Counted from the stretch's first letter, positions 3,524 through 34,398 are shown. The stretch is 52,160 nucleotides of DNA from a virus (IMGVR_UViG_3300033153_005795:1-52160), one strand, 5' to 3'. The notes: generated by a model from the letters alone, not told the origin. Translations and numbers: made by a program.

Positions 3524-4459
3524 TTACGTAGCCGCCGGACAAAGGATACCGGAAACATCTACCGTATCACAGTGGTAACACTCGAACGATTTGCACGAAC
3601 CTGGATCCACGCCAGTCGCCTGTGTCATATCATTCACATAGCAGTTGTAAGCCAGTATTCCAGTACAGGCCGAGATTAGCTCGATTGAATGATCACCTGT
3701 CTGTGTATTCTCCAGATAACAATGCTCAATCAACAGGTTTGTGAGAACTTTGCCGGTTGGATTGTGGATGCAAGCGTTGGCGAAATCACCAATAATCCGG
3801 CAGTTGGAAATCTGTACGTTGTTTTCAACTTCTTCAAGTTCGATGGCTTCGTCTGCTCCGGCATTCGGTGCCAGGAAAGTGCAGTTCTTTATTACCATAT
3901 CATCGGCAGCATTGGCTGCTCCACTCGTCGAAACAGCCAGCGTAGCTTGTTTGGTCGAATTAGCCATCAATACATAACAGTCGCACAGGGTAAAGAAAGC
4001 GGCTCCCACATCAATAGGCATTGCAACCTCATCTATGCCCGTCGCATCAATATAGAAATTTGTAACTGTACAGTTAGCAGCATCTATATCGAATGCTTTG
4101 GCTCCGGTATGCGATAGCGTGAGTGTCGGACGAAGGCTGCCGCTGCCGACGCCGATGATTGTAACGCCCGCAACATCGCAGGTTACAAGAGCCCCACTTG
4201 CAGACTTTGTTTCCGTGTGCCCTGGAGCAACCAGAATTATATCGCCCTGGTTTGCTGTACATTTTCCTATGGCATAATCGACTGTAGCAAACGGCATATC
4301 CCAGGAGTTACCATGCTCTCCGTCATTAGCATCGGTTGCATTGGTCGCACCACTATCAACGAAAAACACGTTGGCATTGCTTAACAGTTTTACCCCCAGG
4401 TTCGACAGGACGGGCATAATATCCCATCCGTACTTGTGAATCAAATCATAAGCTTTCAT
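3524..4459 (-). CDS. Beta-helix virion protein (head fibre/decoration candidate)
   Basis: FFVDSG..GNSWDMPFATVDYAI..GDIILVAPGH is a typical beta-helix N-cap, followed by IKNCTF/ISNCRI rungs; directly downstream of the capsid gene. Confidence 0.7.
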   Translation of the reverse strand: MKAYDLIHKYGWDIMPVLSNLGVKLLSNANVFFVDSGATNATDANDGEHGNSWDMPFATVDYAIGKCTANQGDIILVAPGHTETKSASGALVTCDVAGVTIIGVGSGSLRPTLTLSHTGAKAFDIDAANCTVTNFYIDATGIDEVAMPIDVGAAFFTLCDCYVLMANSTKQATLAVSTSGAANAADDMVIKNCTFLAPNAGADEAIELEEVENNVQISNCRIIGDFANACIHNPTGKVLTNLLIEHCYLENTQTGDHSIELISACTGILAYNCYVNDMTQATGVDPGSCKSFECYHCDTVDVSGILCPAAT

Positions 4460-4500: not shown

Positions 4501-4556
4501 ACCGGGGGCAATGTGTATGAAAGGAGAAGGCAATGATGGCAAGCATTGCCCCCGGT
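4501..4556 (-). terminator. Long-loop hairpin after the capsid gene (terminator or mRNA stabiliser)
   Basis: Perfect 13-bp inverted repeat ACCGGGGGCAATG (4501-4513) / CATTGCCCCCGGT (4544-4556), followed by AT-rich sequence on the minus strand. Confidence 0.6.
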
Positions 4557-4570
4557 TAGCCCTTAAACCA

Positions 4571-6154
4571 TTAAACCATCGTTGCTTCGGTCAAGCCAGT
4601 CAGCTTCACTCCACGTGGATCGACAGGTGCGACCAGTTTGTACTGCCAGAACGGAGCCTGTACGTATGACAGCGGATTACCACTGCTGTCCACGACAGTC
4701 ATAAAGATACCGGTATGCCCTGCTACCGGAGCAAGGAATTCGATTTCTGCACTCACACGACTGTCGGAACCACCGACCCGTGGAGGAACATATCGTTTGA
4801 TATTCCCGCCCTTAAGTTTCAAGCCATACAATCTTCCTGTCAAGCACATTGGGCTGATAACCCACTGGAGATCACGTCCGTTGAAACTATACGTAATCTT
4901 ACTCCAACCGCCGGCTACATCGAGAGCCTTGCCGGTTCTCTCATAGACATAACGGTTGTTGTAAAGACTCGGCTGTTCCAGATACTTCAAACTGATACCC
5001 TGCGTCGAAATAATCGTATCGAGTGATTGACCCGGATAAGCATCCAGATAACCACCGATATAATTATTCATCACAGTTTCGGTGAGTGGGCCGTTGACAG
5101 TTACAACCTGCGACTTGAACTGTGGATAATATGTCAGATCCAGTGCTTCCGCAGCGGCACCTCCGCCCATCAGCTTACCGGAACTCTTTATCCAATCCTC
5201 AAGCCCCCAGCTCATCATAGGACGACCAACACTATTGGCCGTTGTATTTGCCAATACCAGCCAATCATCTGCCGCAGCAGCCTGGCCGTTCTGGAATATG
5301 TCGCCGCTTGAACCCGAACCATAGTTAGGCTTCCCGCCGTCAACGGTATCAGTCGGGGCGAGGGTGATTGTATTGGTCAAATAATCAACCATTACCACCG
5401 TCAACTGTACGTAGTGCTCGGTCGTGTGCTCGTAGTTACGCACATCCGTACCGTCTGTTGCTGTACCGGTTTGAATCTCACCGCTACTGTCTGCTACTAT
5501 ATCGATAACCTGCCCAGGACGGAAGTTGTGGCATCTACCATAATCGGTATCCAGAACAATATCGATATAGTCGGTCAGCGTACCATTCTCGGCAATTGAA
5601 GAAATTCGCCCAAGAACCGTTACATCGTAAGTTCCATCGTTGGCTGTTGCGTGGAAGAAACTGGCAGCTTCTACCAGTGCGTGTAGATTCCCTACTTCCT
5701 TAATATCACGAGCGACCTGCTTGATCTGTGCAGCCTCCAATTTGTCGGTCTGCAACCACACGACAGGAATATTGAAGTTACCCGTGGTCATATGGAGAGT
5801 AAGCTCACGCTTCAGGCTCGAAGTATGAGGTGCACGTTCAGCTTTCGGGAATATAGCCACATCATCGGCAGCAGTTCCCAGCCCAAGCAGACCAGCCTGA
5901 CTACCTGTTATGCTCGTCATAGCAGGGCCAGCAGGATTGGCATTCTGGATCAAACCAGCCAAACCAGTTGAAAACAAGTGAATCACCTTCCAGCCCCGCC
6001 CAATCCCGGCAGCCCCGGTAGTATCCCGTGTTACATCGATACTCGTCGATTGAATCTGACTGTATATCGGAGCGATAGCTGGCAGAGATTCGTTAATGAC
6101 TCTTGGGAGTTCTTCCCGGACAATATTGTCCAGATGTCCCATAGCGTCTGCCAT
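4571..6154 (-). CDS. Major capsid protein (with insertion domain)
   Basis: Position after portal and scaffold; 527 aa; capsid-like C-terminus (VAPVDPRGVKLTGLTE) and MSWGLEDWI segment; central beta-rich insertion. Confidence 0.75.
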   Translation of the reverse strand: MADAMGHLDNIVREELPRVINESLPAIAPIYSQIQSTSIDVTRDTTGAAGIGRGWKVIHLFSTGLAGLIQNANPAGPAMTSITGSQAGLLGLGTAADDVAIFPKAERAPHTSSLKRELTLHMTTGNFNIPVVWLQTDKLEAAQIKQVARDIKEVGNLHALVEAASFFHATANDGTYDVTVLGRISSIAENGTLTDYIDIVLDTDYGRCHNFRPGQVIDIVADSSGEIQTGTATDGTDVRNYEHTTEHYVQLTVVMVDYLTNTITLAPTDTVDGGKPNYGSGSSGDIFQNGQAAAADDWLVLANTTANSVGRPMMSWGLEDWIKSSGKLMGGGAAAEALDLTYYPQFKSQVVTVNGPLTETVMNNYIGGYLDAYPGQSLDTIISTQGISLKYLEQPSLYNNRYVYERTGKALDVAGGWSKITYSFNGRDLQWVISPMCLTGRLYGLKLKGGNIKRYVPPRVGGSDSRVSAEIEFLAPVAGHTGIFMTVVDSSGNPLSYVQAPFWQYKLVAPVDPRGVKLTGLTEATMV

Positions 6155-15140: not shown

Positions 15141-15359
15141 TTATCCATTCTTGTTCTGTATTCTTGTCTCCAGCTCTTCTATCTTTTTCCTGTTCGCCTC
15201 TATCTGGTTATCCCTCTGGTCTCTTTTCTCAAGTAATGCCAGGTACTTACTTCCCACTAACCATCCTACCGTTATGCTGCCTACCAGCATCCCCATCACA
15301 AACTCCATATCCGTTCCCGTTATAAATTCCATCTTTCCTATCTCCTTTCTTTCCCCCAT
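15141..15359 (-). CDS. Small single-TM plus coiled-coil protein
   Basis: FVMGMLVGSITVGWLVG TM segment, then a charged helix; start uncertain. Confidence 0.55.
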   Translation of the reverse strand: MGERKEIGKMEFITGTDMEFVMGMLVGSITVGWLVGSKYLALLEKRDQRDNQIEANRKKIEELETRIQNKNG

Positions 15360-15481
15360 AGGTATCTCCCCTCCCCTGGTACCTTAATTTCCGTTTCTTG
15401 TATTATCCCAATACCAAGGTCGGGGAGCTACCTACTTACCTTCACCTACTGCCCGTAGGTGCTCAATTGTCTTATGCCTTA

Positions 15482-15688
15482 CTACCCATACCAATCTTCC
15501 TTTATACACTCTCCCAACTCAATTCCTCTCCCCTCCCCGTAGTGAGGTATATCCCCATTCACTGTTATCCTGCCATTCTGGGATAGCCTAACTACTATGT
15601 AGTCCTCTACATACAACATAATAGGCCCATCCTTACCCGCCTGCTTTACCCTTACACGTACCTTTGGTTGTGCTATCTTTTCAGTCAT
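15482..15688 (-). CDS. Small beta-rich protein, paralog family A
   Basis: Shares a G.I.L.V....L..[DN]G......IP pattern with neighbours and with 36492..36707; AAGGA SD. Confidence 0.7.
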   Translation of the reverse strand: MTEKIAQPKVRVRVKQAGKDGPIMLYVEDYIVVRLSQNGRITVNGDIPHYGEGRGIELGECIKEDWYG

Positions 15689-15713
15689 TCCTTATCTCCT
15701 TTCTATCTCATAA

Positions 15714-15917
15714 TCACACCAATTCAACCCGTCCATACTTATCTGTCTTCAAACCGGCATTATTCTTCTCTGGTATGTACATCTGTAATCTTATCCTACC
15801 GTCCTTCCGAAGGGTAAGTGTCTTATACTTCCCTACCCACAGTTCGATACACCCATCAACCTTTTCTACCAATCTCACAGGAACACCATCCCCTGGATAC
15901 ACTACATACTTATTCAT
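15714..15917 (-). CDS. Small beta-rich protein, paralog family A
   Basis: Closest to 36492..36707 (M.KYVV..., IP..N..GL..D..GR). Confidence 0.75.
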   Translation of the reverse strand: MNKYVVYPGDGVPVRLVEKVDGCIELWVGKYKTLTLRKDGRIRLQMYIPEKNNAGLKTDKYGRVELV

Positions 15918-15936
15918 TTCCTGTTTCCTTTCTATT

Positions 15937-16128
15937 CTATACCTTTATACTACTACCTCGTGGTATGTACTTATTCAATACCACTCTATTGTCATATCGG
16001 AGACTAAACACTTCATACTCTTCACCCTCGTATAACTCTATCCTATCACTGTCAGCCTTCAGTTCTATCTTCCCTGCTATACCATTCCCGTCCGGTGAGG
16101 GCATATAATATACATTATGTACAAGCAT
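15937..16128 (-). CDS. Small beta-rich protein, paralog family A (divergent)
   Basis: IEL...LR.D.R....YIP pattern shared with 15714..15917. Confidence 0.65.
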   Translation of the reverse strand: MLVHNVYYMPSPDGNGIAGKIELKADSDRIELYEGEEYEVFSLRYDNRVVLNKYIPRGSSIKV

Positions 16129-16284
16129 CTCTTATCTCCTATCTTATACCTTACAATGGTAGCCCCAGCGGGTAGGACACCCTTTCCCTGTCTCTCGTCC
16201 TCTTCTCTACTATGCCCCTCTGCCGTTATCTGGGGCTACCTACTACAGACCTCCCTGTCTGACCTCCTTGTCCTACTTATCCTT

Positions 16285-16494
16285 CTATGCTCTCAATCCC
16301 TTATACTTCAACCGCCACTTCTTTCCCTTCTTTCCTGTTACCTGCTCAAACTCTCTACCGTACTGGTCAACCAACATCCCATCATCCATTATCTTGAGCC
16401 GTAGTCCGCCCATTCTTACTGCTGCCTCCCTCTCCCTCTTTACCTCTCTCTTCCTCTTTTCCCTTACCACCGTCTCATAACCATACCCGCCCAT
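16285..16494 (-). CDS. Small basic hypothetical protein
   Basis: AAAGGAG SD; 69-aa ORF. Confidence 0.55.
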   Translation of the reverse strand: MGGYGYETVVREKRKREVKREREAAVRMGGLRLKIMDDGMLVDQYGREFEQVTGKKGKKWRLKYKGLRA

Positions 16495-16515
16495 CGTACT
16501 ATCTCCTTTCTTATT

Positions 16516-16719
16516 TTATAGGGCTGCTTCTGCTATAAACCTACCCCTATCAAAGTTAGGGTTTTCCTGTTCACACCACTCCATTATATCTTCCCCGATG
16601 CTCTCTATAACCATCCTACCCGTCAGCCTCTCCATCTCTACCCTCTCACCATTCTTGTATAATATCTCCGCCAACTTATTGAAGTGCTTCCTTGTCAACC
16701 CTGCCATTCTATCCCTCAC
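16516..16719 (-). CDS. Small helical phage protein (TRKHF...NPNFDR.RF type)
   Basis: Pattern recurrent in small phage proteins; similar to 34405..34611. Confidence 0.7.
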   Translation of the reverse strand: MRDRMAGLTRKHFNKLAEILYKNGERVEMERLTGRMVIESIGEDIMEWCEQENPNFDRGRFIAEAAL

Positions 16720-17062
16720 CCCCTTCCTCTTTCCTACTCTCTGTGGAATATGGGTGTATATGTCCCTCTACATCAAAGAATGCCGATACCTTTGTCTCTA
16801 CTGTCTCTTTTATATCCTTTGCCAGCTCATCCACCTCTCTCATTATAGTCTCCCTGACGTCTTCCTTATCCTCCTTGTCATATTTCTCAAGCCTATCTTC
16901 TACCTTCTGGAGGAGGTTCCTACCCCATATTCCTATGGCCTCTATCCCCCATCCATCCTCTCTCAATCCCACAAACTCCTCATAGGTCATCTCCTCTGGA
17001 GTTATACCCCATTCCCTCTCCGCCACCTCATACTCTTTTCTATACTGCTCTTCCTTATCCAT
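16709..17062 (-). CDS. Acidic protein sharing a motif with the JAB C-terminus
   Basis: SD-supported ATG at 17062; E/D-rich; contains YEEFVGLREDGWGIEAIGIWG. Confidence 0.75.
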   Translation of the reverse strand: MDKEEQYRKEYEVAEREWGITPEEMTYEEFVGLREDGWGIEAIGIWGRNLLQKVEDRLEKYDKEDKEDVRETIMREVDELAKDIKETVETKVSAFFDVEGHIHPYSTESRKEEGGEG

Positions 17063-17087
17063 TGTACTATCTCCTTTCGTTTTACCT

Positions 17088-17861
17088 TTATTCCACCTCA
17101 TTCTCAAATACCGCCGTACCATATGACCCTAATAGGTCAACGTGTATCTCTACCGGTAGCTCAAATCCTTTATTCCTTCTCATCCACGTCATATACTTCG
17201 CTACCATTAACCCCGATGCCACGTATGCACTGTATATGGTCATCCTTGTAGTACAACTCCCTTGCCTGGCCTCTTCATCCGGAAACCAATTCTCCTCCCA
17301 CCATCTCTTTGCCTTCTTACTATTCATAGGCACACAGAATAACCTCATCACTTCCCCCTCTACCCTTATATCCATAAACAACTTCGTCTCCCATCTTGCT
17401 GCCAACTCATATATCTCTTTCCTCGCCCTCATACTATCCACACAACAGAACACCACATCCATACATATATCTATCCACCTCTCATCATCATCTCCTGGCA
17501 GGTTCTCCTGTATCATCTCAAGCCCTATACCTTCCCCCCTTAACCACTTCCTACAATCCCTACCGGTTACCTCCACCTTACTGCTACCAATATCCTGCGG
17601 GGCATACATCTGTGCCCCTACATTCACATCCTCTACTACATCGGGGTCAATCAGTACCAACCGTCGTACTCCCATACACGCCAACTGCAGGGCTACCTGC
17701 CTCCCTATTGCCCCTACCCCTGCTATCACTACCTGATACCTTCCCAGTTGCCTCTCTGTTACCAACCCACTCTGCCTTTCTCTCCATCTATTCATACTCT
17801 GCTTTACTACTCTATACCTCTCATCTGCCCTATCGTCCACATCCCTAACCGTATCCATCAT
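17088..17861 (-). CDS. E1-like ThiF/MoeB-family adenylyltransferase
   Basis: RQSGL arginine, GVGAIG nucleotide loop, IDPDVVEDVN, CVDSMRAR, candidate catalytic Cys in QGSCTT; ATGA-coupled to the JAB gene. Confidence 0.92.
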   Translation of the reverse strand: MMDTVRDVDDRADERYRVVKQSMNRWRERQSGLVTERQLGRYQVVIAGVGAIGRQVALQLACMGVRRLVLIDPDVVEDVNVGAQMYAPQDIGSSKVEVTGRDCRKWLRGEGIGLEMIQENLPGDDDERWIDICMDVVFCCVDSMRARKEIYELAARWETKLFMDIRVEGEVMRLFCVPMNSKKAKRWWEENWFPDEEARQGSCTTRMTIYSAYVASGLMVAKYMTWMRRNKGFELPVEIHVDLLGSYGTAVFENEVE

Positions 17862-18838
17862 TTTACTGCTCCTTTCTTTTCCTTCTTACTTCTCTTTTTC
17901 TTCCTGTTTCCTCTTCTCGTTTTACTACCCCTCCCACTTGTATAGGAAGCCATACTGCTATCCCCCTTTAGCTCCCTCTCGACTTCCTCTATATCCTTCC
18001 TTGTGCATCCAAATAGAGCTGTTCCCCACGTCCTTATTTCCTCTGCTGTCCATCCTAACTTCCTCAATGACCTAAACTCCTCCCACGATATATCCAGATA
18101 CGACTCATCCCCCAACTCATCCCCTTCCTCCCTAAACCACGGATACTTTAGCCTACTATATTCATCCCACATATCCCCCGTGGAACACTGTGTTCCCTGT
18201 GCCCCCTCTCCTCCTAATGAGGGTAGATAATCCCTCTTACCTGTGCTATCATCCCACCACCTCTGGCTCTGGGCTGGTACTATTGCCTGTGCTTTCTGTA
18301 CCTCTATATTCCTGGCTACCTCTTCTGCCCATTCCTTATGCCTGCTGCCTTCAAACTCCATCTCCCAGTCAACCACCGTATCCAGCTCTATTGTTACCCT
18401 GTGTTCCCCAAATAACTTATAGCTTAATTCCGTGGTTATATCGTCCCCTTCTCCTATTACCATCATTATTGCCCAGTCCCCTTTACCGAATATCTCCTCG
18501 AACGTCCGCCTATCTACCCCACTTGGGGTACTCTTCATTCCAGGGTGGGTATGTATCCATATCCTCATACACTCCAGCGGCTCCTTACCCGCTACTATCA
18601 TCTCATCGAAATACCTTGCTACATCATCATCATCCAACTCTACTGTTACCCTACTTACCTTCTGCTTTACTGTTACAAAGTCCACTATACTCAATACATC
18701 CTCCGGACTCTTACTTATCCCAAACCCACTAAACTCATTGCCATCCGCCTTACTACTTATGTACCTTATCTTTGCCATTACATACGGACTCATCCTTACT
18801 ACCAGCTCATCTGCCTTCACTTTCTTGTCCTTTGCCAT
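17858..18838 (-). CDS. JAB/MPN (JAMM) metallopeptidase, deubiquitinase-like
   Basis: E(FSGFG)...WIHTHPGMKSTPSGVD gives a complete E-HxH-x7-S-x2-D JAMM motif. Confidence 0.92.
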   Translation of the reverse strand: MAKDKKVKADELVVRMSPYVMAKIRYISSKADGNEFSGFGISKSPEDVLSIVDFVTVKQKVSRVTVELDDDDVARYFDEMIVAGKEPLECMRIWIHTHPGMKSTPSGVDRRTFEEIFGKGDWAIMMVIGEGDDITTELSYKLFGEHRVTIELDTVVDWEMEFEGSRHKEWAEEVARNIEVQKAQAIVPAQSQRWWDDSTGKRDYLPSLGGEGAQGTQCSTGDMWDEYSRLKYPWFREEGDELGDESYLDISWEEFRSLRKLGWTAEEIRTWGTALFGCTRKDIEEVERELKGDSSMASYTSGRGSKTRRGNRKKKRSKKEKKGAVK

Positions 18839-18865
18839 ACTACACACTCCTTTCTTGTACCTCTT

Positions 18866-20140
18866 TTATTGAGGTATAGCTACATACTGCCCTTGTTCAG
18901 TTTCCTTTTCTGCCTCTCTACAGTATCCACATATCTGCTGTCCGTCCTCCCAGTCTTCAGGCCACATCCATACCTTCCCGCACCTCGTACATAGTACCGC
19001 CTCCTCAAGACACTCTTTACATACCCTTATATCCATCCTCCCTGGAACGCTTACTTTCCTCTCGTTATAGAGGCATCTCACACGATGCCACCTACATACC
19101 TCCCTGCCACACCTAAAGCACTTACGTATAATCCCATTATTCTCCAGATAATCCTTCGCACATCTGCTACATATCCTATCCTTCTCCCACTCCTCTATTT
19201 TATCTTCTCCCGCCTTCTCACTACATATTACACACCTCGATGTTATTGCCTCTCCTTTGGTCGTACTACATCCCCCCTGGATATGTACCAACCTACCGCA
19301 CAGCGCACATCTCTCCAGTTCACTATCCTCTATCCATTCCTTACATATACAGCACCTATGGTGGTCTGTTTGCCCTCTATTCGCTGCTATCTCTGCCATT
19401 GACCTGTATGGTGCACTTCCCAAGTCATACGTCCCCAGCACTGCCTTTATTACTTCTAATATTGCTATTATATCCCCCTCCCTCTTCGCCCTCCACGCTA
19501 TTCTGTCCCCGCCACTTCCCAGGCATATTCTTCTCCAGTATCCCGCCATACCTGCACTCAAGTATGGGTGTGCCTCCTGTCCACTCTCTGATGCTGTCTC
19601 CTCCCACACCAACACCCCCATCTCTTTGTTCATCCTTACCTTAAACGGCCCAAACTCCAACTCCAACCCTTTACATTCCAACCTTACCTTTGGTAGATAT
19701 ACTATCAGTTCCTCCTGTACTTTGCCTCTCCCAACACTGAACTTCACTATCTCTGCTCCCTCTGTCTCATTCTCCAGATATGCTATGGCATCCCTTACCC
19801 CTCTCGGTATCCCTCCCTCCTCTTCCAGTCGTTTCTTCTCTCTTTTCTTTATTGCATACAACCCATCAACCTTCCGCCTCTGGAATTCTATCATATCTTC
19901 TATCAACCTACTCGACCTACTACGCATAGATATGGCTAACTGTCTTAATTCCGCCATTCGCCACCTGCCCTTTAACCACGTCCCATTCCATATACATTCC
20001 TCTGCATCCCCCACCAGTTCATCCATCCGCTCTACATCCCTCGCTACCCTCTCTAACCGTTCCATCACCTCCGGTACCTCCCCTTCTCTCCTTCCGGTAT
20101 TCCTTACTAACCAGTCAACAACTCTATCCTGTATATCCAT
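18866..20140 (-). CDS. Prokaryotic E2-like domain fused to N-terminal helices and a C-terminal multi-CxxC zinc-finger region
   Basis: AHPYL..RRICLGSG..VLGTYDLGSAPY fits the HP...C E2 signature; about 9 CxxC-type pairs in the last ~160 aa. Confidence 0.75.
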   Translation of the reverse strand: MDIQDRVVDWLVRNTGRREGEVPEVMERLERVARDVERMDELVGDAEECIWNGTWLKGRWRMAELRQLAISMRSRSSRLIEDMIEFQRRKVDGLYAIKKREKKRLEEEGGIPRGVRDAIAYLENETEGAEIVKFSVGRGKVQEELIVYLPKVRLECKGLELEFGPFKVRMNKEMGVLVWEETASESGQEAHPYLSAGMAGYWRRICLGSGGDRIAWRAKREGDIIAILEVIKAVLGTYDLGSAPYRSMAEIAANRGQTDHHRCCICKEWIEDSELERCALCGRLVHIQGGCSTTKGEAITSRCVICSEKAGEDKIEEWEKDRICSRCAKDYLENNGIIRKCFRCGREVCRWHRVRCLYNERKVSVPGRMDIRVCKECLEEAVLCTRCGKVWMWPEDWEDGQQICGYCREAEKETEQGQYVAIPQ

Positions 20141-20174
20141 CGTATTCCCCTTTCTTCTTCTTTCCTTATACCCT

Positions 20175-20203
20175 GGGGGTGAGGTCTAACCTACCCCACC
20201 CCC
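20175..20203 (-). other. GC-rich stem-loop between the Ubl and E2 genes
   Basis: Minus-strand GGGGGUGGGGU-agguuag-ACCUCACCCCC (11 bp with one G-U pair); no U-tract. Confidence 0.55.
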
Positions 20204-20230
20204 TGTCGTACCTACCTACTAACCGTCAAC

Positions 20231-20500
20231 CTATCCGCCTATCAGGAGATAGCCCTTGGCCCCTGTTATCTTTACTGGGGTTATTGATATTCTATCCCCA
20301 TCCCGTAGGATTGTCCCTTTACCGGTAGCCATATCTACCTTTACACCGTTCAGGAGTACCTTATACTCCGCTGGGTCTCCAAATCCCTCTTCTGCTGCAA
20401 ATACTTCACCGATGGTAGTCCCCTCTGCTATCTGTACCTCTTTATTAAACCCTCCATCGGTATGCCAACACGACAAACTTATTGTACCATTCATAGCCAT
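20231..20500 (-). CDS. Ubiquitin-like beta-grasp protein (ThiS/MoaD-like)
   Basis: 89 aa from the SD-supported ATG; EGTTIGEVF, VLLNG, ILRDGDRISITP beta-grasp signatures; ends KITGAKGYLLIGG. Confidence 0.9.
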   Translation of the reverse strand: MAMNGTISLSCWHTDGGFNKEVQIAEGTTIGEVFAAEEGFGDPAEYKVLLNGVKVDMATGKGTILRDGDRISITPVKITGAKGYLLIGG

Positions 20501-20562
20501 CTTCTTTACTCCTTTCATTTTCTCTTCTACTTTCTTTACCTTATTTACCACTTACCACTCTC

Positions 20563-20853
20563 TCATACACCCTCTACTGTCAAGCCCTGTTCCTGTGCCA
20601 GTACCTTCAACTGTATCCTATGCCTTCTTCTTACCGGTGTCATCTCTTCTGGCCCAATCTCCAATAACCTCACTACCTTATCCCTGTTGTTACCCTCTAT
20701 CCTGGCTATCGGTACTCCATAGCTCTCCAGTACCCCGTGCCTTGCTACTAACGGGGCAGGTGCCCCTATATCCTGCCCTTTTAGGAACCCTATCAATACC
20801 TCCAGCACGGTCTCCCTTACTCCTGGGGCTTCTGCTTCTATCCGCACATACAT
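20563..20853 (-). CDS. Hypothetical protein, first gene of the Ubl operon
   Basis: GGAGG SD before ATG 20853; immediately downstream of the 20990-21017 promoter. Confidence 0.65.
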   Translation of the reverse strand: MYVRIEAEAPGVRETVLEVLIGFLKGQDIGAPAPLVARHGVLESYGVPIARIEGNNRDKVVRLLEIGPEEMTPVRRRHRIQLKVLAQEQGLTVEGV

Positions 20854-20914
20854 ACCTCCTTTCTTCCCTCTCCCTCTGGTTACCATTACCCATCCCCTCT
20901 CCCTATCCTTCTAA

Positions 20915-20954
20915 TACGCTCGCACGCACGCTCGCACGCTCGCACGCACGCACG
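20915..20954. repeat. CGCA/CGCT tetranucleotide microsatellite
   Basis: acgctcgcacgcacgctcgcacgctcgcacgcacgcacg. Confidence 0.85.
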
Positions 20955-20989
20955 TCCGCTTTATAAGAGGATGCCCGTCTGCTGCTGCT

Positions 20990-21017
20990 ATTATACGATG
21001 ACTCCGGCGAATGTTAA
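20990..21017 (-). promoter_or_regulatory. Sigma70-type promoter of the skewed early module
   Basis: TTAACA-N16-TATAAT with T-tracts upstream. Confidence 0.7.
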
Positions 21018-21074: not shown

Positions 21075-21192
21075 TTATAACCCTATAAGGTTATAAGGTT
21101 GTAAGGTTATAAGATTGTAGTGCCGCAGGGCTACAACCCTACATCCCTATAACCCCGTAACCCTATAACCTTATACCCCTACAACCCTATAG
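21075..21192. repeat. Inverted array of degenerate 8-bp repeats (YTAYAACC)
   Basis: Left arm GGTTATAA GGTTGTAA GGTTATAA GATTGTAG, spacer TGCCGCAGGG, right arm CTACAACC CTACATCC CTATAACC CCGTAACC CTATAACC TTATACCC CTACAACC. Confidence 0.85.
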
Positions 21193-30685: not shown

Positions 30686-31294
30686 CTAACTATCATAATC
30701 ATACATTAGGTCGGGCATTATGTCAAGAGTAGGCTGTATTGCATAGGCCAGCATCAGATGTATCAGTACCGTTCCTGTCTTACGACGAGTGGAAGGAGAT
30801 CTCGATCTCCACGGCAGCCACAATACCCCGAACCTATACTTCGCCAGCACCAGCGACAGGGCAGCTATTATTCGTTCGGGTTCCTTTACCATTTTGTTCC
30901 GGCTGCAGAGTTCGCTGGGAGACGCCTCAATCAGAATATATGGATGTTCACAGGCCGATAATCGCCTAAATGCCCTTGCCTGCCGTACCGAATCAATAGG
31001 ATCAAGCAGGTTCTTCAGGAGCTCAAACTGGCTTGCTTTCCTCTCGACAACACAGCAGTCGGGATATTCAGCCAGCCGGTAGTCTCCGTAGTCCAGTTTT
31101 ATCTTCTGCGTCTTAACCTTAATCGCCAGGGTACGACGCAGTGTCCTTTCGGGGTGAGGAATTTTGATAGTCGATGGGAACAATACAGGATACTGTTCCC
31201 GACTATCAATCTCCACAATAACTTCCTGCGGAATCTTATATCTACTGTATATTTCCGGGACTGCTGGGGTAGCTGGCATATATTGTCTCCTCAT
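30686..31294 (-). CDS. ERCC4/XPF-type nuclease (resolvase candidate)
   Basis: IDSREQ, LDYGDY, VVERKAS motifs. Confidence 0.85.
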   Translation of the reverse strand: MRRQYMPATPAVPEIYSRYKIPQEVIVEIDSREQYPVLFPSTIKIPHPERTLRRTLAIKVKTQKIKLDYGDYRLAEYPDCCVVERKASQFELLKNLLDPIDSVRQARAFRRLSACEHPYILIEASPSELCSRNKMVKEPERIIAALSLVLAKYRFGVLWLPWRSRSPSTRRKTGTVLIHLMLAYAIQPTLDIMPDLMYDYDS

Positions 31295-33851
31295 ATTCTA
31301 TTGGAATTGTTCTTCCTGTCCATTCTTCTATTACTGCTAACAGTGGTGGACGCCGCAACGTTTTATCTACTAACACACGTACCTCGTCTATCTCCTCGGT
31401 AGGTATATCAAGCAGCAATGAGTCATAAGTATTAGATACCATCTTGGTACTCCATCGTCGTCTCTTAATGCCCCGCAGAATCTCGAACTGTGCACTCTGG
31501 AATAACTGTGCACTCAACGTTTGAATAGGGAAATTACATATCTCGTTTAGATATGTATCTGTTCCCCTACCTGTCGCAAATGTCCTGCTCCAGCCGGTGG
31601 GCAATTCCATATAACCTTTCTGTCGCACATCCTCGATTAGTCTATCCTGCCATTCTCTAAAGTGGTGGTGCAGGGAATACCACCTGTCGATTGTAGCTCG
31701 GCAGAATCGAAGGTCCAATTCTATCCCGACCTTGTTGCGGGCAGTTTCCTGGTATTTTCTGGGGCCGCCCCGATAGAGAACCAGGAAGTTCAGAGTTTTC
31801 AGCAGATGTCTTTCCCGTGAATTCTTAATGTCCGGACGTGTCAGGTCGAGATCCGGGAAGATAATCGGGGCATCCTGCAGGTGTAAATCTAATCCCTTCT
31901 CGTATGCCTCCATCAATAAAGGATCCCCGGACTGTAAAGCTGCCATCCGCAATTCAATCTGGGAAAGATCAAAACCAGCGAGGATTCCTCGTTTATGCCG
32001 TGTAGTAAGGCAACCCATAATTTGTTTCGGAAACGTAGGTATAGACGGTTTCTGTGCACTAAACCTACCCTGAATTGTACCACCCCCCTTTTCTTCGCTG
32101 CTTGCTCCTCGTGAATGATAACCAGGCATCGGATACCACGTAGGATGGGCAAAGGAAACACGACCGTCTTTGTACGTTAATCCTTTTCGTTTATCCGTCA
32201 AGAGAGGAGTTGTAAAACTATCTACAAGCTTGCTTGCCGCCCGATGCTCCTGTAACTTTTCGAGCTGCAATCTGCGGGGCCCAGCAGGTAACTTATCAAG
32301 AAGCAATGCTATGTTCTCCTTTTTTATAGCAATCTCTTTTGTTTTCCGTGTGAACATAACCCGCTTATCATTAAGCAGACCACATTCTTCCAGGGATTCC
32401 CCGATGAAGTTTCGTAGTGATTTACTGGATCCTTCTCCCTGTGCAATAATTCCTTCCCTCTCCAGCTCTGAAAAGATAGCTTCTCTTTTTTCTGTAAGCT
32501 GTGTATGCAGGGCCGTAAGCCTTTCTGTATCAAACGCAACCCCGTCCTGTTCGAGCTGGAAGGTATCCCAGATGATGGCATTCCGAAGATCTGCACACTC
32601 TTTTGTCAGCTTAAAACTATCTTCCCCATACCTCTCCTTGATTCGTGCCCAACATTCTTCATACAGCACGAGAGTAGCAGCAGAATCGAGGCAGTTATAA
32701 TAATTCTCCTCCGGATCCCACGCACTCTTTGCTCTTCCGAGTATATCTTTCACTCCGTTGTAATCTGCGATACCAAACAAGGTTGCTCTTTCTTTCAGTC
32801 CCTGCTCCGGTTGCTGTTCATATAACAGAAATCCTACCAGCAACGTATCGTCAACCCGCAGGCGTAAGGGATTTATCCAGTAGAAAAGTTCCTTGTCGGC
32901 GGCGGCCTGATATAACAAATCGTATTTCAAGTTCTGACCGATAAGAAGCCGCTTGTTTGTAGAAATCAGACGGAACCACTCACGGATTCGCTCACGATGT
33001 ACACCATTTTTGAAAACGTATAGTGGTGTTTTGATGTCGCCTTTTTCATCTCGATAGGCAAACGCAACTGTAACAACCTGATCTTCATATTCTACACCAT
33101 CTACAATCTTCGATTTAATTGGAACAAAAACCGTCTGTTCTTTTCCGGCGAGAATACCATAAGTCTCTATATCGACTGCGGTTACGTCAGGACACGTAGT
33201 CGGCAGTTTCGCTCCTACCTCTGGTATTACCATTAGTGCATTGGGTATGAATTCGCCCCGCAGATAGCGGCTGACTAAATCGAAATGGGCCTGCACTGCT
33301 CTTACAAGTGCAGGTTTTCTGCTCGGATGTAAGATTGCAGGATGATAAGTGAAGAAGCAAGCCTTCACATCTATGCCCGGATCTGTTGCTTTGCAGCCCT
33401 GGTATCGGAAGGCTTCCTTGAGGCTCGAAAATCCCTCTATACTATAGGCGGCAGGAAGTCCACACGCCAGGATAATGATCTCTTCGTATTCCTTTCGCAG
33501 CCGTTTTATATCTTCTATCAGGTGTTTATGGCACGCCTTAATCTGGCTATTCCGTGGCTTGCTGCCCTGTGGAACAACACACCGGCAGGTGTTGGTTAAA
33601 TAGATGTCTGCATATTCCGCAAAACCTATGTTGTCGAGGAATTTCTCCAGTAGCTTACCGGCATATCCAATCCAGATCTTTCCCTGTCTATCCTCGTTTT
33701 TACCTGGAGATTGTCCTACTACCAGCAGGGCTTTTTTCTTTCCGGTAACTGCGTACGGTCTTGTTGGAAGCCCCGGATGCTCGGCAGCCTCGTGCAGCGG
33801 ACAATCCGTACAATTTGTACAATCGACAAATTCAATCATTCGATTCTCCAT
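31242..33851 (-). CDS. polA: Family A DNA polymerase with N-terminal uracil-DNA-glycosylase-like domain
   Basis: UDG family-4-like (CTDCPL, VGQSPG, TN..RC, YHPA); 3'-5' exo (DIET, NLKYD, YNCLD); motif A DLSQIELR; motif B KTLNFLVLY; motif C TYDS. Confidence 0.92.
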   Translation of the reverse strand: MENRMIEFVDCTNCTDCPLHEAAEHPGLPTRPYAVTGKKKALLVVGQSPGKNEDRQGKIWIGYAGKLLEKFLDNIGFAEYADIYLTNTCRCVVPQGSKPRNSQIKACHKHLIEDIKRLRKEYEEIIILACGLPAAYSIEGFSSLKEAFRYQGCKATDPGIDVKACFFTYHPAILHPSRKPALVRAVQAHFDLVSRYLRGEFIPNALMVIPEVGAKLPTTCPDVTAVDIETYGILAGKEQTVFVPIKSKIVDGVEYEDQVVTVAFAYRDEKGDIKTPLYVFKNGVHRERIREWFRLISTNKRLLIGQNLKYDLLYQAAADKELFYWINPLRLRVDDTLLVGFLLYEQQPEQGLKERATLFGIADYNGVKDILGRAKSAWDPEENYYNCLDSAATLVLYEECWARIKERYGEDSFKLTKECADLRNAIIWDTFQLEQDGVAFDTERLTALHTQLTEKREAIFSELEREGIIAQGEGSSKSLRNFIGESLEECGLLNDKRVMFTRKTKEIAIKKENIALLLDKLPAGPRRLQLEKLQEHRAASKLVDSFTTPLLTDKRKGLTYKDGRVSFAHPTWYPMPGYHSRGASSEEKGGGTIQGRFSAQKPSIPTFPKQIMGCLTTRHKRGILAGFDLSQIELRMAALQSGDPLLMEAYEKGLDLHLQDAPIIFPDLDLTRPDIKNSRERHLLKTLNFLVLYRGGPRKYQETARNKVGIELDLRFCRATIDRWYSLHHHFREWQDRLIEDVRQKGYMELPTGWSRTFATGRGTDTYLNEICNFPIQTLSAQLFQSAQFEILRGIKRRRWSTKMVSNTYDSLLLDIPTEEIDEVRVLVDKTLRRPPLLAVIEEWTGRTIPIEYEETIYASYPSSPGNIQ

Positions 33852-34398
33852 TCTCTAATCTAATATCGCTCTCTACTTCGTTGCCCCACACATCCCAACC
33901 TTCTGCCTTTTCTCTTGCAAAGAGTTCTATACGAGGCAAATCACCAACGAGCTGGACTATTCTATCTCTAACCTCCGCCGGCTTCTGACTATGCCTTTCT
34001 CGTGGAGATACTACAATCTCCCTCACACTTCTGTTTATCCGTTTAGGAGAACCTTTTGTAGCCAGGAGAACGAACTCTGTATTCTTCCTTGTCCAGTAGC
34101 CCAATCCACAGAAAAAACCTTTACCCGATGGGTTTTGCTTTACCCACACAAAGCCATCCGTTTTATACTCGAAACCCCACGCTTCGATAACCTGCAAGGC
34201 TTCTTTAAGTTTGGGCCAGGTTGCCCATAAAAATAAGATGCAATCCTTATCGGCAATCTCCCTGACTGGCAGCGAGCAAATATCTCCCAGCTCCATGGTC
34301 GGATAATACTGATCAGAACTTCTACCAGAACCAGTACCATAACACCACACCCGATATTTCCAAGGCGGGTCAGCATAGATTATTTGGTATTTCTTCAT
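33832..34398 (-). CDS. MT-A70 family adenine methyltransferase
   Basis: IIYADPPW, LFLWAT, WGFEYK, HSQKP, IELFAR, WDVWGNE. Confidence 0.93.
   Translation of the reverse strand: MKKYQIIYADPPWKYRVWCYGTGSGRSSDQYYPTMELGDICSLPVREIADKDCILFLWATWPKLKEALQVIEAWGFEYKTDGFVWVKQNPSGKGFFCGLGYWTRKNTEFVLLATKGSPKRINRSVREIVVSPRERHSQKPAEVRDRIVQLVGDLPRIELFAREKAEGWDVWGNEVESDIRLENGESND

Follow-up and report, generated by a model that had tools for sequence, protein, structure and literature searches.

To our knowledge, conjugation of ubiquitin-like proteins (Ubls) in prokaryotes has so far been shown as a bacterial anti-phage weapon, as in Type II CBASS and Bil, with no role assigned to Bub. Here we analyze a cassette of four genes in the virus sequence IMGVR_UViG_3300033153_005795 (52,160 bases; this whole stretch is called the window), which encodes a Ubl, a 424-amino-acid (aa) protein resembling ubiquitin-conjugating enzymes (E2-like), a JAB peptidase and an activating enzyme (E1) of the ThiF type. 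With a probability of roughly 0.6, we read the cassette as a phage-encoded Ubl conjugation cascade.

Bil operons are classed as 6d/6c in Iyer et al. 2006 (PMC1779556), and the Ubl of Type II Bil carries a conserved Gly with a tail of up to nine residues, which the JAB enzyme BilC removes (10.1101/2023.09.26.559546). The operon of Caldiarchaeum encodes ubiquitin (Ub), E1-like, E2-like, small RING finger and Rpn11-like proteins (PMC5654768, PMC6043591, PMC3082918), and its Rpn11-like enzyme processes the Ub precursor (PMC6043591). No description of a phage-borne Ubl-E2-JAB-E1 cassette was found in the literature searched, which lay largely outside subscription journals, and ThiF is unmentioned in the main texts of three crAss phage papers (PMC6235969, PMC7886860, PMC8375218). 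The nearest item was a preprint on Asgard viruses that describes E1-like proteins only (10.1101/2021.07.29.454249).

The cassette and its four proteins

The window carries direct terminal repeats, and the whole virus record is rated 100% complete. The 29 window open reading frames (ORFs) compared with PHROGs include those for a large terminase (2.1e-60) and a family-A DNA polymerase (6e-55), as well as for tail-fibre proteins, a primase/helicase-type ATPase, a Sak4-like annealing protein and a PD-(D/E)XK exonuclease. The terminal repeats, together with the terminase, DNA polymerase, helicase and tail fibres, confirm the viral origin of the window. All its long ORFs lie on the minus strand. Mis-assembled host DNA was considered and is unlikely, given the continuous strand, the overlapping genes, the terminal repeats and the presence of the 424-aa protein on four contigs. 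The original prediction had described a virus with no integrase and no sulfur-transfer partner genes, and this held: among 57 window ORFs compared with Pfam or the 29 compared with PHROGs, no family match was found to integrase, resolvase, ThiG, MoaE, PALP, rhodanese or desulfurase. The window contains no tRNA genes. Its terminase is at most 26% identical to that of any of the 126 matching catalogued phages, and a search for relatives via the neighbouring helicase gave one weak locus and no close phage by which to judge whether the module is core or accessory.

As predicted, the four genes are adjacent and co-oriented on the minus strand at 17088..20500, and the JAB and E1 genes are coupled by a 4-nt ATGA overlap. 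The cassette consists of the following features:

20231..20500 (ORF open to 20551), minus strand: pro-Ubl, ThiS-type beta-grasp (Pfam ThiS)
18866..20140, minus strand: 424-aa protein, whole gene (ORF)
19844..20140, minus strand: residues 1-99 of the 424-aa protein, predicted long helical hairpin (secondary structure in AlphaFold2, AF2)
19355..19843, minus strand: residues 100-262 of the 424-aa protein, putative E2/UEV-like alpha/beta core (motif, invariant residues, weak fold matches)
18911..19354, minus strand: residues 263-410 of the 424-aa protein, Cys-rich array (Cys positions)
17858..18847, minus strand: JAB/MPN+ metallopeptidase with a 180-aa C-terminal extension (Pfam, PADLOC, JAMM motif)
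17088..17861, minus strand: minimal ThiF-type E1, 257 aa (Pfam ThiF, profile versus PDB)

The E1 matched Pfam ThiF (PF00899) with 79.1 bits (cut-off 28.1; 3.6e-22), and a profile of this E1 and two relatives retrieved PaaA (1.3e-11), TcdA, ThiF, UBA5, UBA7 and MccB from the PDB, at 1e-11 to 5e-10. The protein has the expected GxGxxG motif and the candidate catalytic Cys203 in GSCT (codon 17253-17255), and its seven cysteines form no CxxC pair. Comparison of the seven cassette E1s revealed that R29, G48, G50, G53, D72, D74, N80, Q84, K95, D142 and R147 are invariant (7/7), as are D164, R166, C203, T208 and Y210; we take this set to cover the nucleotide loop, the Lys and Asp used by ThiF/MoeB enzymes and the crossover-loop Cys. 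Judged by these residues, the E1 appears to be active, apart from a departure in its N-x-x-R-Q motif. The best NCBIfam rows were the ThiF model (60.5 bits, cut-off 275) and the MoeB model (40.2 bits, cut-off 266). No rhodanese domain was found on the E1.

The Ubl matched ThiS in Pfam (26.1 bits, cut-off 22.5; 1.3e-5; residues 33-92 aligned with positions 12-71 of the 76-position profile) and MoaD in NCBIfam, and no other family. Its likely start is the ATG at 20500 with an AAGGAG box upstream, giving 89 aa; residues are numbered here by the 106-aa ORF. Counted from the Pfam alignment, the end position of ThiS corresponds to Gly97 (codon 20261-20263) in the stretch I-T-P-V-K-I-T-G97, after which nine residues follow, and the terminal Gly-Gly 105-106 is not at that position. 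The functional glycine is probably Gly97 rather than the terminal Gly-Gly. Comparison with the Ubl relatives revealed that the motif P-x-K-(I/V/L)-x-G is kept together with its glycine, and that the downstream length is 5, 9, 13 or ~130 residues: 5 in locus L003, 13 in L029 (after I-T-P-T-K-V-E-G), and ~130 in L002, L018, L019 and gp79 of crAss001. A glycine kept in front of tails of variable length implies processing by JAB. The Ubl thus has the form of a precursor, with a predicted mature C-terminus at Gly97, and trimming this tail would be the obvious first job of JAB.

The JAMM motif of JAB is intact (H99-x-H101-x7-S109-xx-D112), as had been noted, and Glu38, upstream of it, aligned with the Glu of 6fjv. 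The two best solved relatives of JAB are the Caldiarchaeum Rpn11-like structures 6fjv (E 5e-6) and 6fju (E 9.9e-6). JAB scored 24.6 bits against Pfam Prok-JAB (2.4e-5), just under the cut-off of 25, and was matched by 11 JAB-type models of PADLOC. In addition, a motif of ~30 residues (W/Y-E-E-F-x-x-L-R-x-x-G-W ... W-G) is found both at residues ~255-290 of JAB and at residues ~47-80 of orf137, the next gene after E1, and nowhere else among the window's frames; the two stretches could represent a shared docking module.

The 424-aa protein carries an E2-like motif, H191-P192-Y193 (His codon 19568-19570), x13, C206 (codon 19523-19525), x, G208, and an FGPF motif in its core. In a six-sequence alignment, the invariant residues of the core (100-262) are G164, P165, H191, C206 and G208 (6/6), and the consensus across the group reads F-G-P-F ... 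H-P-(H/Y) ... (I/V)-C-(L/F/M)-G. Classical E2s have a Y-P-x-x-P-P ... H-P-N ... I-C-L run, which this group echoes. The spacing typical of UBC domains, in which the Cys lies ~8-15 residues past the HPN-type His, is present in the protein, with both His and Cys kept in all six sequences. Taken together, the invariance of H191/C206/G208 (6/6) and of E1 Cys203 (7/7) and the recurring gene order appear to be more than chance.

Relatives of this protein are few. A word-indexed search retrieved the query alone, and phmmer, run exhaustively over 1.84 billion representatives, returned four matches at E <= 0.001, of which P0002 (5.7e-5) and P0004 (7.2e-4) are real relatives; P0001 is the query's own record, and P0003 was rejected as a spurious repeat protein. 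Three further relatives were identified in E1 neighbourhoods (L003, L029 and L034), and a profile search gained only the L003 protein. No viral loci were found via P0002 and P0004.

Residues 263-410 contain eight CxxC-type knuckles, from which four or more zinc sites are predicted. By eye, the first eight ligands follow the two-zinc pattern C-x2-C-x11-C-x2-C-x4-H-x4-C-x11-C-x2-C. The array is common to P0002, L029 and L034 and mostly absent from P0004. Searches of the PDB with profile A2 of the protein gave no match, and with profile A9 gave the TRIM5 RING domain (E 0.04) and ribosomal zinc ribbons, and no others; ESM Atlas rows for the array are of the LIM/FYVE type, with TM < 0.45. As the outside hints are limited to the TRIM5 RING match and the LIM/FYVE rows, we put forward only as a hypothesis that the array is a built-in ubiquitin ligase (E3) or substrate adaptor.

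Both AF2 models of the 424-aa protein predict a helix, five strands, the HP..C stretch (two short strands) and three helices, an order that fits the UBC fold. When the core model was compared with 48,161 chains in a VIA search, which is independent of Foldseek, the top Z was 3.6, and E2 enzymes made up 10/50 among the matches listed. They also accounted for 10/13 among the listed matches with alignments of at least 80 residues (Z 2.9-3.6); by title, these ten are UFC1, Pex4p twice, UBE2R2, UbcH10, UbcH5c twice, E2S, UBC12 and Ubc3. An eleventh listed match, 7kzp_L, is presumably the E2-like domain of FANCL, and the remaining rows are helix matches of 30-66 residues. Re-scoring of the Foldseek candidates gave 17/44 with the UBC fold among the matches listed (Z 2.0-3.5), namely ten UFC1, one Ube2w, five TSG101-UEV and one CBASS E2. 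In the ESM Atlas model of the protein (0.62 in the predicted local distance difference test, pLDDT), the neighbours of the core are three unnamed bacterial/viral clusters (TM 0.64-0.66), and residues 111-260 are matched by three UEV-domain clusters (TM 0.49-0.50 over 121-125 residues). These fold pointers to E2/UEV are individually weak, with scores against which the tools warn, and they are concordant, with nothing else covering the domain. On these models, residues 100-262 quite probably adopt a UBC/UEV fold. Residues 10-112 of the full-length model gave only generic helical-hairpin matches in VIA, with Z up to 8.7.

Recurrence in phages, cells and metagenomes

A search of neighbourhoods revealed the order E2-like, JAB, E1 in eight other phage loci besides the window. 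The order is kept in all loci that hold the three genes (9/9: the window, L002, L003, L018, L019, L029, L034, crAss001 and FpV4). E1 relatives with the signature D-P-D-V-V-E-D / N-x-G-x-Q were found at 10 viral loci on 10 contigs and at 13 cellular loci. The locus L029 encodes a Ubl, an E2-like protein (HPHV..VCLG and a Cys-rich tail), JAB and an E1 that is 41% identical to that of the window; the short contig L034 holds the E2-like gene, JAB and E1; L028 and L030 hold JAB and E1 at the contig edge; and in L003, the E2-like gene, JAB and E1 are present, with the Ubl downstream. A sister type (L002, L018, L019) comprises a Ubl carrying a long extension, a ~370-490-aa H-S-H ... C-x-G protein, JAB and E1.

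The cassette also occurs in catalogued phages. A tblastn search with the window E1 matched 83 of 50,697 phage records, including 29 Bacteroides crAss-like, 29 Flavobacterium, 13 uncultured and 4 Xanthomonas records, among others. In crAss001 (MH675552.1), the cassette is gp79-gp76, annotated as hypothetical, hypothetical, 'metalloprotease domain' and 'ThiF', and lies between the primase and the uracil-DNA glycosylase (UDG)/resolvase/exonuclease genes; in FpV4 (NC_041872.1), it is gp53-gp50, similarly annotated. Downstream of the L028 cassette lie a primase, an exonuclease of the family found in the window, a Holliday-junction resolvase and a DNA polymerase. In the eight other phage loci, replication genes always adjoin the cassette. 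In the Xanthomonas jumbo phage PhiXhv-12 (228 kb; L109, 1777-4455), a protein of 892 aa, with H-P-H ... C-L-G at residue 650, is encoded directly upstream of the ThiF gene, and no JAMM motif was found in the five neighbouring ORFs checked.

The metagenome survey with the E1 yielded 190 stretches, of which 80 were kept; 40/80 of the E1 ORFs carry a JAMM in the same ORF, and 14/80 have a separate JAMM ORF directly upstream. Ahead of the fused E1-JAMM ORFs (L035-L107) there are usually several small ORFs, and a ~510-580-aa protein often comes after; these fused ORFs belong to a different, apparently widespread cassette. Among the cellular loci, L004, L005, L006 and L008 (Ignavibacteria/Bacteroidetes) are of another form, with a small protein ending in R-F-N-V-A-A, an H-P-N ... 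C-x-G protein, E1 and JAB, and with no Pfam E2 family match; L005 and L006 have two or three small paralogues upstream that end in (P-)D/S-Y-F-L-x-E-L-x-L-V, and the L008 sequence begins at E1. On L002, a 166-kb crAss-like contig, the JAB gene is apparently split between its H-x-H and S-x-x-D halves (3608-3961, 4511-4780, 5139-5993) by an insert whose ORF, as read by eye, has a LAGLIDADG-like Y-F-D-G-D-G motif and may be an intein or a homing endonuclease. The likeness to operons of Planctomycetota that had been proposed survives as a lead only: a cluster of 2,546 proteins in the ESM Atlas, most of them planctomycete, lies below the bar of the tool in both measures (features 0.88, TM 0.39), and 0/13 of the cellular loci are planctomycete.

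Proposed pathway and competing explanations

The gene set holds all the parts of a Ubl conjugation pathway, as the original prediction claimed, and it is conserved in other phages. In the proposed pathway, the Ubl would be made as a precursor, from which JAB would remove the 9-residue tail by cutting after Gly97. The E1, probably a homodimer, would then adenylate Gly97, possibly keeping the Ubl bound to Cys203 as a thioester, and the Ubl would be passed to Cys206 in the E2/UEV-type central domain of the 424-aa protein. From there it would be transferred onto lysines of target proteins, chosen by the C-terminal zinc-finger array and the N-terminal helical hairpin, so that the 424-aa protein would combine an E2 with an adaptor of its own. 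JAB could also reverse the tag. Since the cassette travels with replication genes in unrelated phages, action in the replication phase is expected, and the pathway would operate within the infected cell on host or phage proteins. Remodelling of the host, counter-defence and exclusion of competitors are each conceivable roles. A wider reading, which we hold tentatively and at a little under even odds, is that several unrelated tailed-phage lineages, including Crassvirales, run their own replication-phase Ubl cascade on host or phage proteins, the window lineage having fused its E2 to a RING-like array into an E2 + E3.

Several results weigh against a conjugation cascade. The Arg of N-x-x-R-Q is replaced in 7/7 E1s (N-V-G-A-Q in the window, in alignments with PaaA and TcdA), and the Ubl is nearer in sequence to sulfur carriers (ThiS) than to ubiquitin. 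No E2 family of Pfam, NCBIfam, PADLOC or PHROGs matched the 424-aa protein or nine relatives, and when the protein was searched in three pieces against Pfam at E <= 10, nothing relevant was found, the core matching neither UQ_con nor any other E2 family. The AF2 models, built on shallow alignments, have pLDDT values of 43.7 (whole protein) and 47.9 (core), and the HP..C stretch, which holds Cys206, is their least confident part. Foldseek of the core model against the PDB and BFVD returned nothing at E <= 0.001. In VIA, all Z values of the core are < 4, which by the tool's own grading possibly reflects a common arrangement. In hhalign, the E2-like group of the window remained unlinked to the crAss-type group (probability 4.7%) and to the cellular HPN group (probability 0.3%), and the kinship of the window and crAss-type groups would rest on position, size and motif only. 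The E2-like domain proposed originally stands as to its HP..C motif, with residues invariant in 6/6, and its UBC fold is putative, at a pLDDT of 44-48 and Z <= 3.6.

One competing explanation accepts the activation of the Ubl and dispenses with an E2: the Ubl would be joined directly to a partner or would itself serve as a cleavable chaperone domain, and in either case the 424-aa protein would be a target, a scaffold or a DNA-binding partner. SAMP/UbaA-type systems join their Ubl directly, without an E2. The best solved matches of the E1, PaaA (1.3e-11), TcdA, ThiF and MccB, work without an E2 as well, and the 424-aa protein has no E2 family match. The crAss-type Ubl, with its ~130-residue C-terminal domain, has the layout of the lambda tail-assembly protein I (TAPI), for which, together with the JAB of protein K, a cleavable chaperone domain is proposed (PMC1779556). 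The invariant His...Cys-x-Gly (6/6), however, is hard to square with a mere scaffold, the two independent models both lead to E2/UEV chains, and the E2-like gene lies between the Ubl and JAB genes (L003 differs, its Ubl being downstream); we regard use of the Ubl without an E2 as unlikely. A conjugation cascade could also serve a different end, as Bil-like exclusion cargo that tags the structural proteins of competitors or guards the infected cell rather than acting in the phage's own replication. BilABCD tags a phage tail protein, according to two reports (10.1101/2024.11.21.623966; 10.1101/2023.09.04.556158), its gene order is that of the present cassette, and the JAB and E1-E2 models of PADLOC match here, with BilD matching weakly (1.1e-4). 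Yet the Ubl and the E2-like protein have no PADLOC match, and no lysogeny genes were found among the 57 ORFs scanned, which leaves no long-lived host to protect. The fixed location among replication genes in unrelated lytic-type phages likewise has the appearance of a core function rather than mobile cargo, and exclusion seems more doubtful still than use without an E2.

We give the slimmest chance to sulfur transfer, in which a ThiS-like thiocarboxylate on the Ubl would donate sulfur for the modification of a cofactor, tRNA or DNA, with JAB freeing the carrier. Mec+ releases the carrier CysO in this manner. The family matches of the Ubl, which are ThiS and MoaD only, would suit such a role, as would the ThiF and MoeB models as best NCBIfam rows of the E1 and the presence of an MT-A70 methyltransferase and a dATP/dGTP pyrophosphohydrolase in the genome. 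Against it, no ThiG, MoaE, rhodanese, cysteine desulfurase or PALP was found among the 57 ORFs scanned, the E1 lacks a rhodanese domain and stays at 60.5 of the 275 bits required by the ThiF model, the carrier glycine is capped by a tail, and the E2-like gene is conserved in the cassette.

If the cassette is indeed a conjugation cascade, the chemistry that bacteria direct at phages would also be found on the phage side of the conflict, which raises the question of what phages tag and why, and virus-encoded tagging of the ubiquitin type would not be confined to viruses of eukaryotes. The sister cassette has gone unnoticed in cultured phages of medical and ecological prominence (crAss001, FpV4), and its presence there makes the question directly testable and the targets findable. 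The E2-like family, invisible to four profile libraries, and the 257-aa E1 would then represent a new branch in the evolution of the E1-E2 relay.

Genomic setting and comparison with known systems

The cassette is part of a block of 12 genes at ~15.0-20.9 kb (genes 15141-20886) whose coding strand is only ~10% cytosine, whichever of the three codon positions is counted, compared with 19, 24 and 19% by codon position in the remaining genome. Arg is encoded as AGR in 138/160 cases in the block (86%) versus 250/624 elsewhere (40%), Ser as AGY in 52/71 versus 312/671, and the purine share in the block is 62-75%. The composition changes abruptly at both edges of the block, each of which falls at a promoter-like site (21017-20990 and 14959-14932). 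No local cytosine shift was found in the homologous cassettes of L002, L003, L018, L019 and L023. The further features of the block and its upstream region are:

20563..20886, minus strand: orf107, first gene of the cytosine-poor module (no match in Pfam, PHROGs, PADLOC or NCBIfam)
16709..17122, minus strand: orf137, next after E1 (~30-residue motif in common with the JAB extension)
15141..16719, minus strand: six small ORFs of 63-72 aa, end of the cytosine-poor module (ORFs)
20990..21017, minus strand: sigma70-like promoter consensus TTAACA-16-TATAAT, 11/12 (consensus match alone)
21078..21192, no strand assigned: iteron-like 8-nt repeat arrays with inverted arms 21086-21130 / 21137-21181 (repeats just upstream of the promoter-like site)

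The suggestion that the operon lies near the start of a sigma70-driven module has one consensus match behind it, the 11/12 site at 21017-20990. The promoter scan counted 17 sigma70-like sites in this region, which is no excess over shuffled sequence (14.9 +/- 4.3). Early expression, also proposed originally, would have this promoter-like consensus as its basis. The iteron-like repeats at 21078-21192 are of the TAAGGTTA / TAACCCTA type, with 45-nt inverted arms, and a ACGCNCGC repeat with a period of 8 is located at 20916-20963, in the presumed leader between the promoter-like site and orf107; these arrays and the repeat may be an origin or an operator. Downstream of the cassette, three tandem small paralogues on the minus strand (15482-15688, 15714-15917 and 15937-16128; 63-68 aa, 25-34% identical) have an L-x-x-D/N-G/N-R-I/V ... 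Y-I-P motif in common and no family match. Elsewhere in the window, the DNA polymerase A (31242-33851) has an N-terminal domain of the uracil-DNA-glycosylase superfamily and is followed by the MT-A70 methyltransferase (33832-34398) and the dATP/dGTP pyrophosphohydrolase (PF04447; 34621-35013), a combination that hints at a modified or curated nucleotide pool.

Among known systems, ThiS-ThiF and MoaD-MoeB have in common with the cassette a beta-grasp carrier and an adenylating enzyme of the ThiF fold, and they differ in that the E1 here scores far below their cut-offs and no sulfur-transfer partner was found. PRTRC-type cassettes contain a JAB; membership in this group was rejected, with 36.3 bits for the E1 against the 144.75-bit cut-off of PRTRC_ThiF (TIGR03736) and no PRTRC A/C model for the other cassette proteins. 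In the lambda/T1 pair of protein I and the JAB-NlpC protein K, Iyer et al. 2006 (PMC1779556) describe a ThiS/MoaD-like beta-grasp with a conserved Gly, a downstream extension and an adjoining JAB, as in the present cassette; that pair belongs to a tail module and is described without an E1 and an E2-like gene, whereas both are present here, in a replication module.

The crAss001 and FpV4 cassettes are similar to that of the window in gene order, in their location among primase, UDG, exonuclease and resolvase genes, in an E1 of 23-29% identity that shares the D-P-D-V-V-E-D / N-x-G-x-Q signature as well as the invariant Cys, in a Ubl with P-x-K-K-I-x-x-G, and in a middle protein with H-S-H ... 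C-x-G. In contrast to the window, the crAss type has no zinc-finger array, and its Ubl has a ~130-residue C-terminal domain instead of a 9-residue tail. Neither sequence nor profile comparison linked its E2-like protein to that of the window.

Type I/II BilABCD resembles the cassette in having separate Ubl, E2, JAB and E1 genes in the same order, and the arrangement of Gly97 and nine further residues is a Bil-like feature of the predicted Ubl precursor. The differences are several. The E1 here is one 257-aa adenylation domain, without the inactive domain, the helical Cys insertion and the four-Cys zinc site. His191 of the E2-like protein precedes Cys206, the next His being residue 260, whereas BilB lacks an upstream His and has a downstream one. 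A zinc-finger array is fused to the E2-like protein here, and the cassette is phage-encoded, whereas Bil is found in bacterial defence islands. The JAB and E1-E2 models of PADLOC matched JAB and E1 weakly (BilD 1.1e-4, positions 209-319 of 453), and no PADLOC model matched the Ubl or the 424-aa protein. Membership in Bil was rejected on the single-domain E1, the reversed placement of the His and the blindness of PADLOC to the Ubl and the E2-like protein; membership in Bub or Cap2/Cap3 was considered and dropped.

The operon of 'Candidatus Caldiarchaeum subterraneum' has in common with the cassette an Rpn11-like JAB, an HP-type His before the Cys, a zinc-finger element and a precursor tag. It differs in its tag, which is of the ubiquitin family and here is ThiS-like, and in its E2, which is recognizable there and matches no Pfam family here; moreover, the zinc fingers of the window are fused to the E2-like protein and resemble a RING at E 0.04 at best, and the E1 is minimal. 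We conclude that the cassette would represent a previously undescribed, phage-carried variant within the Bil and Caldiarchaeum kinds of prokaryotic Ubl conjugation.

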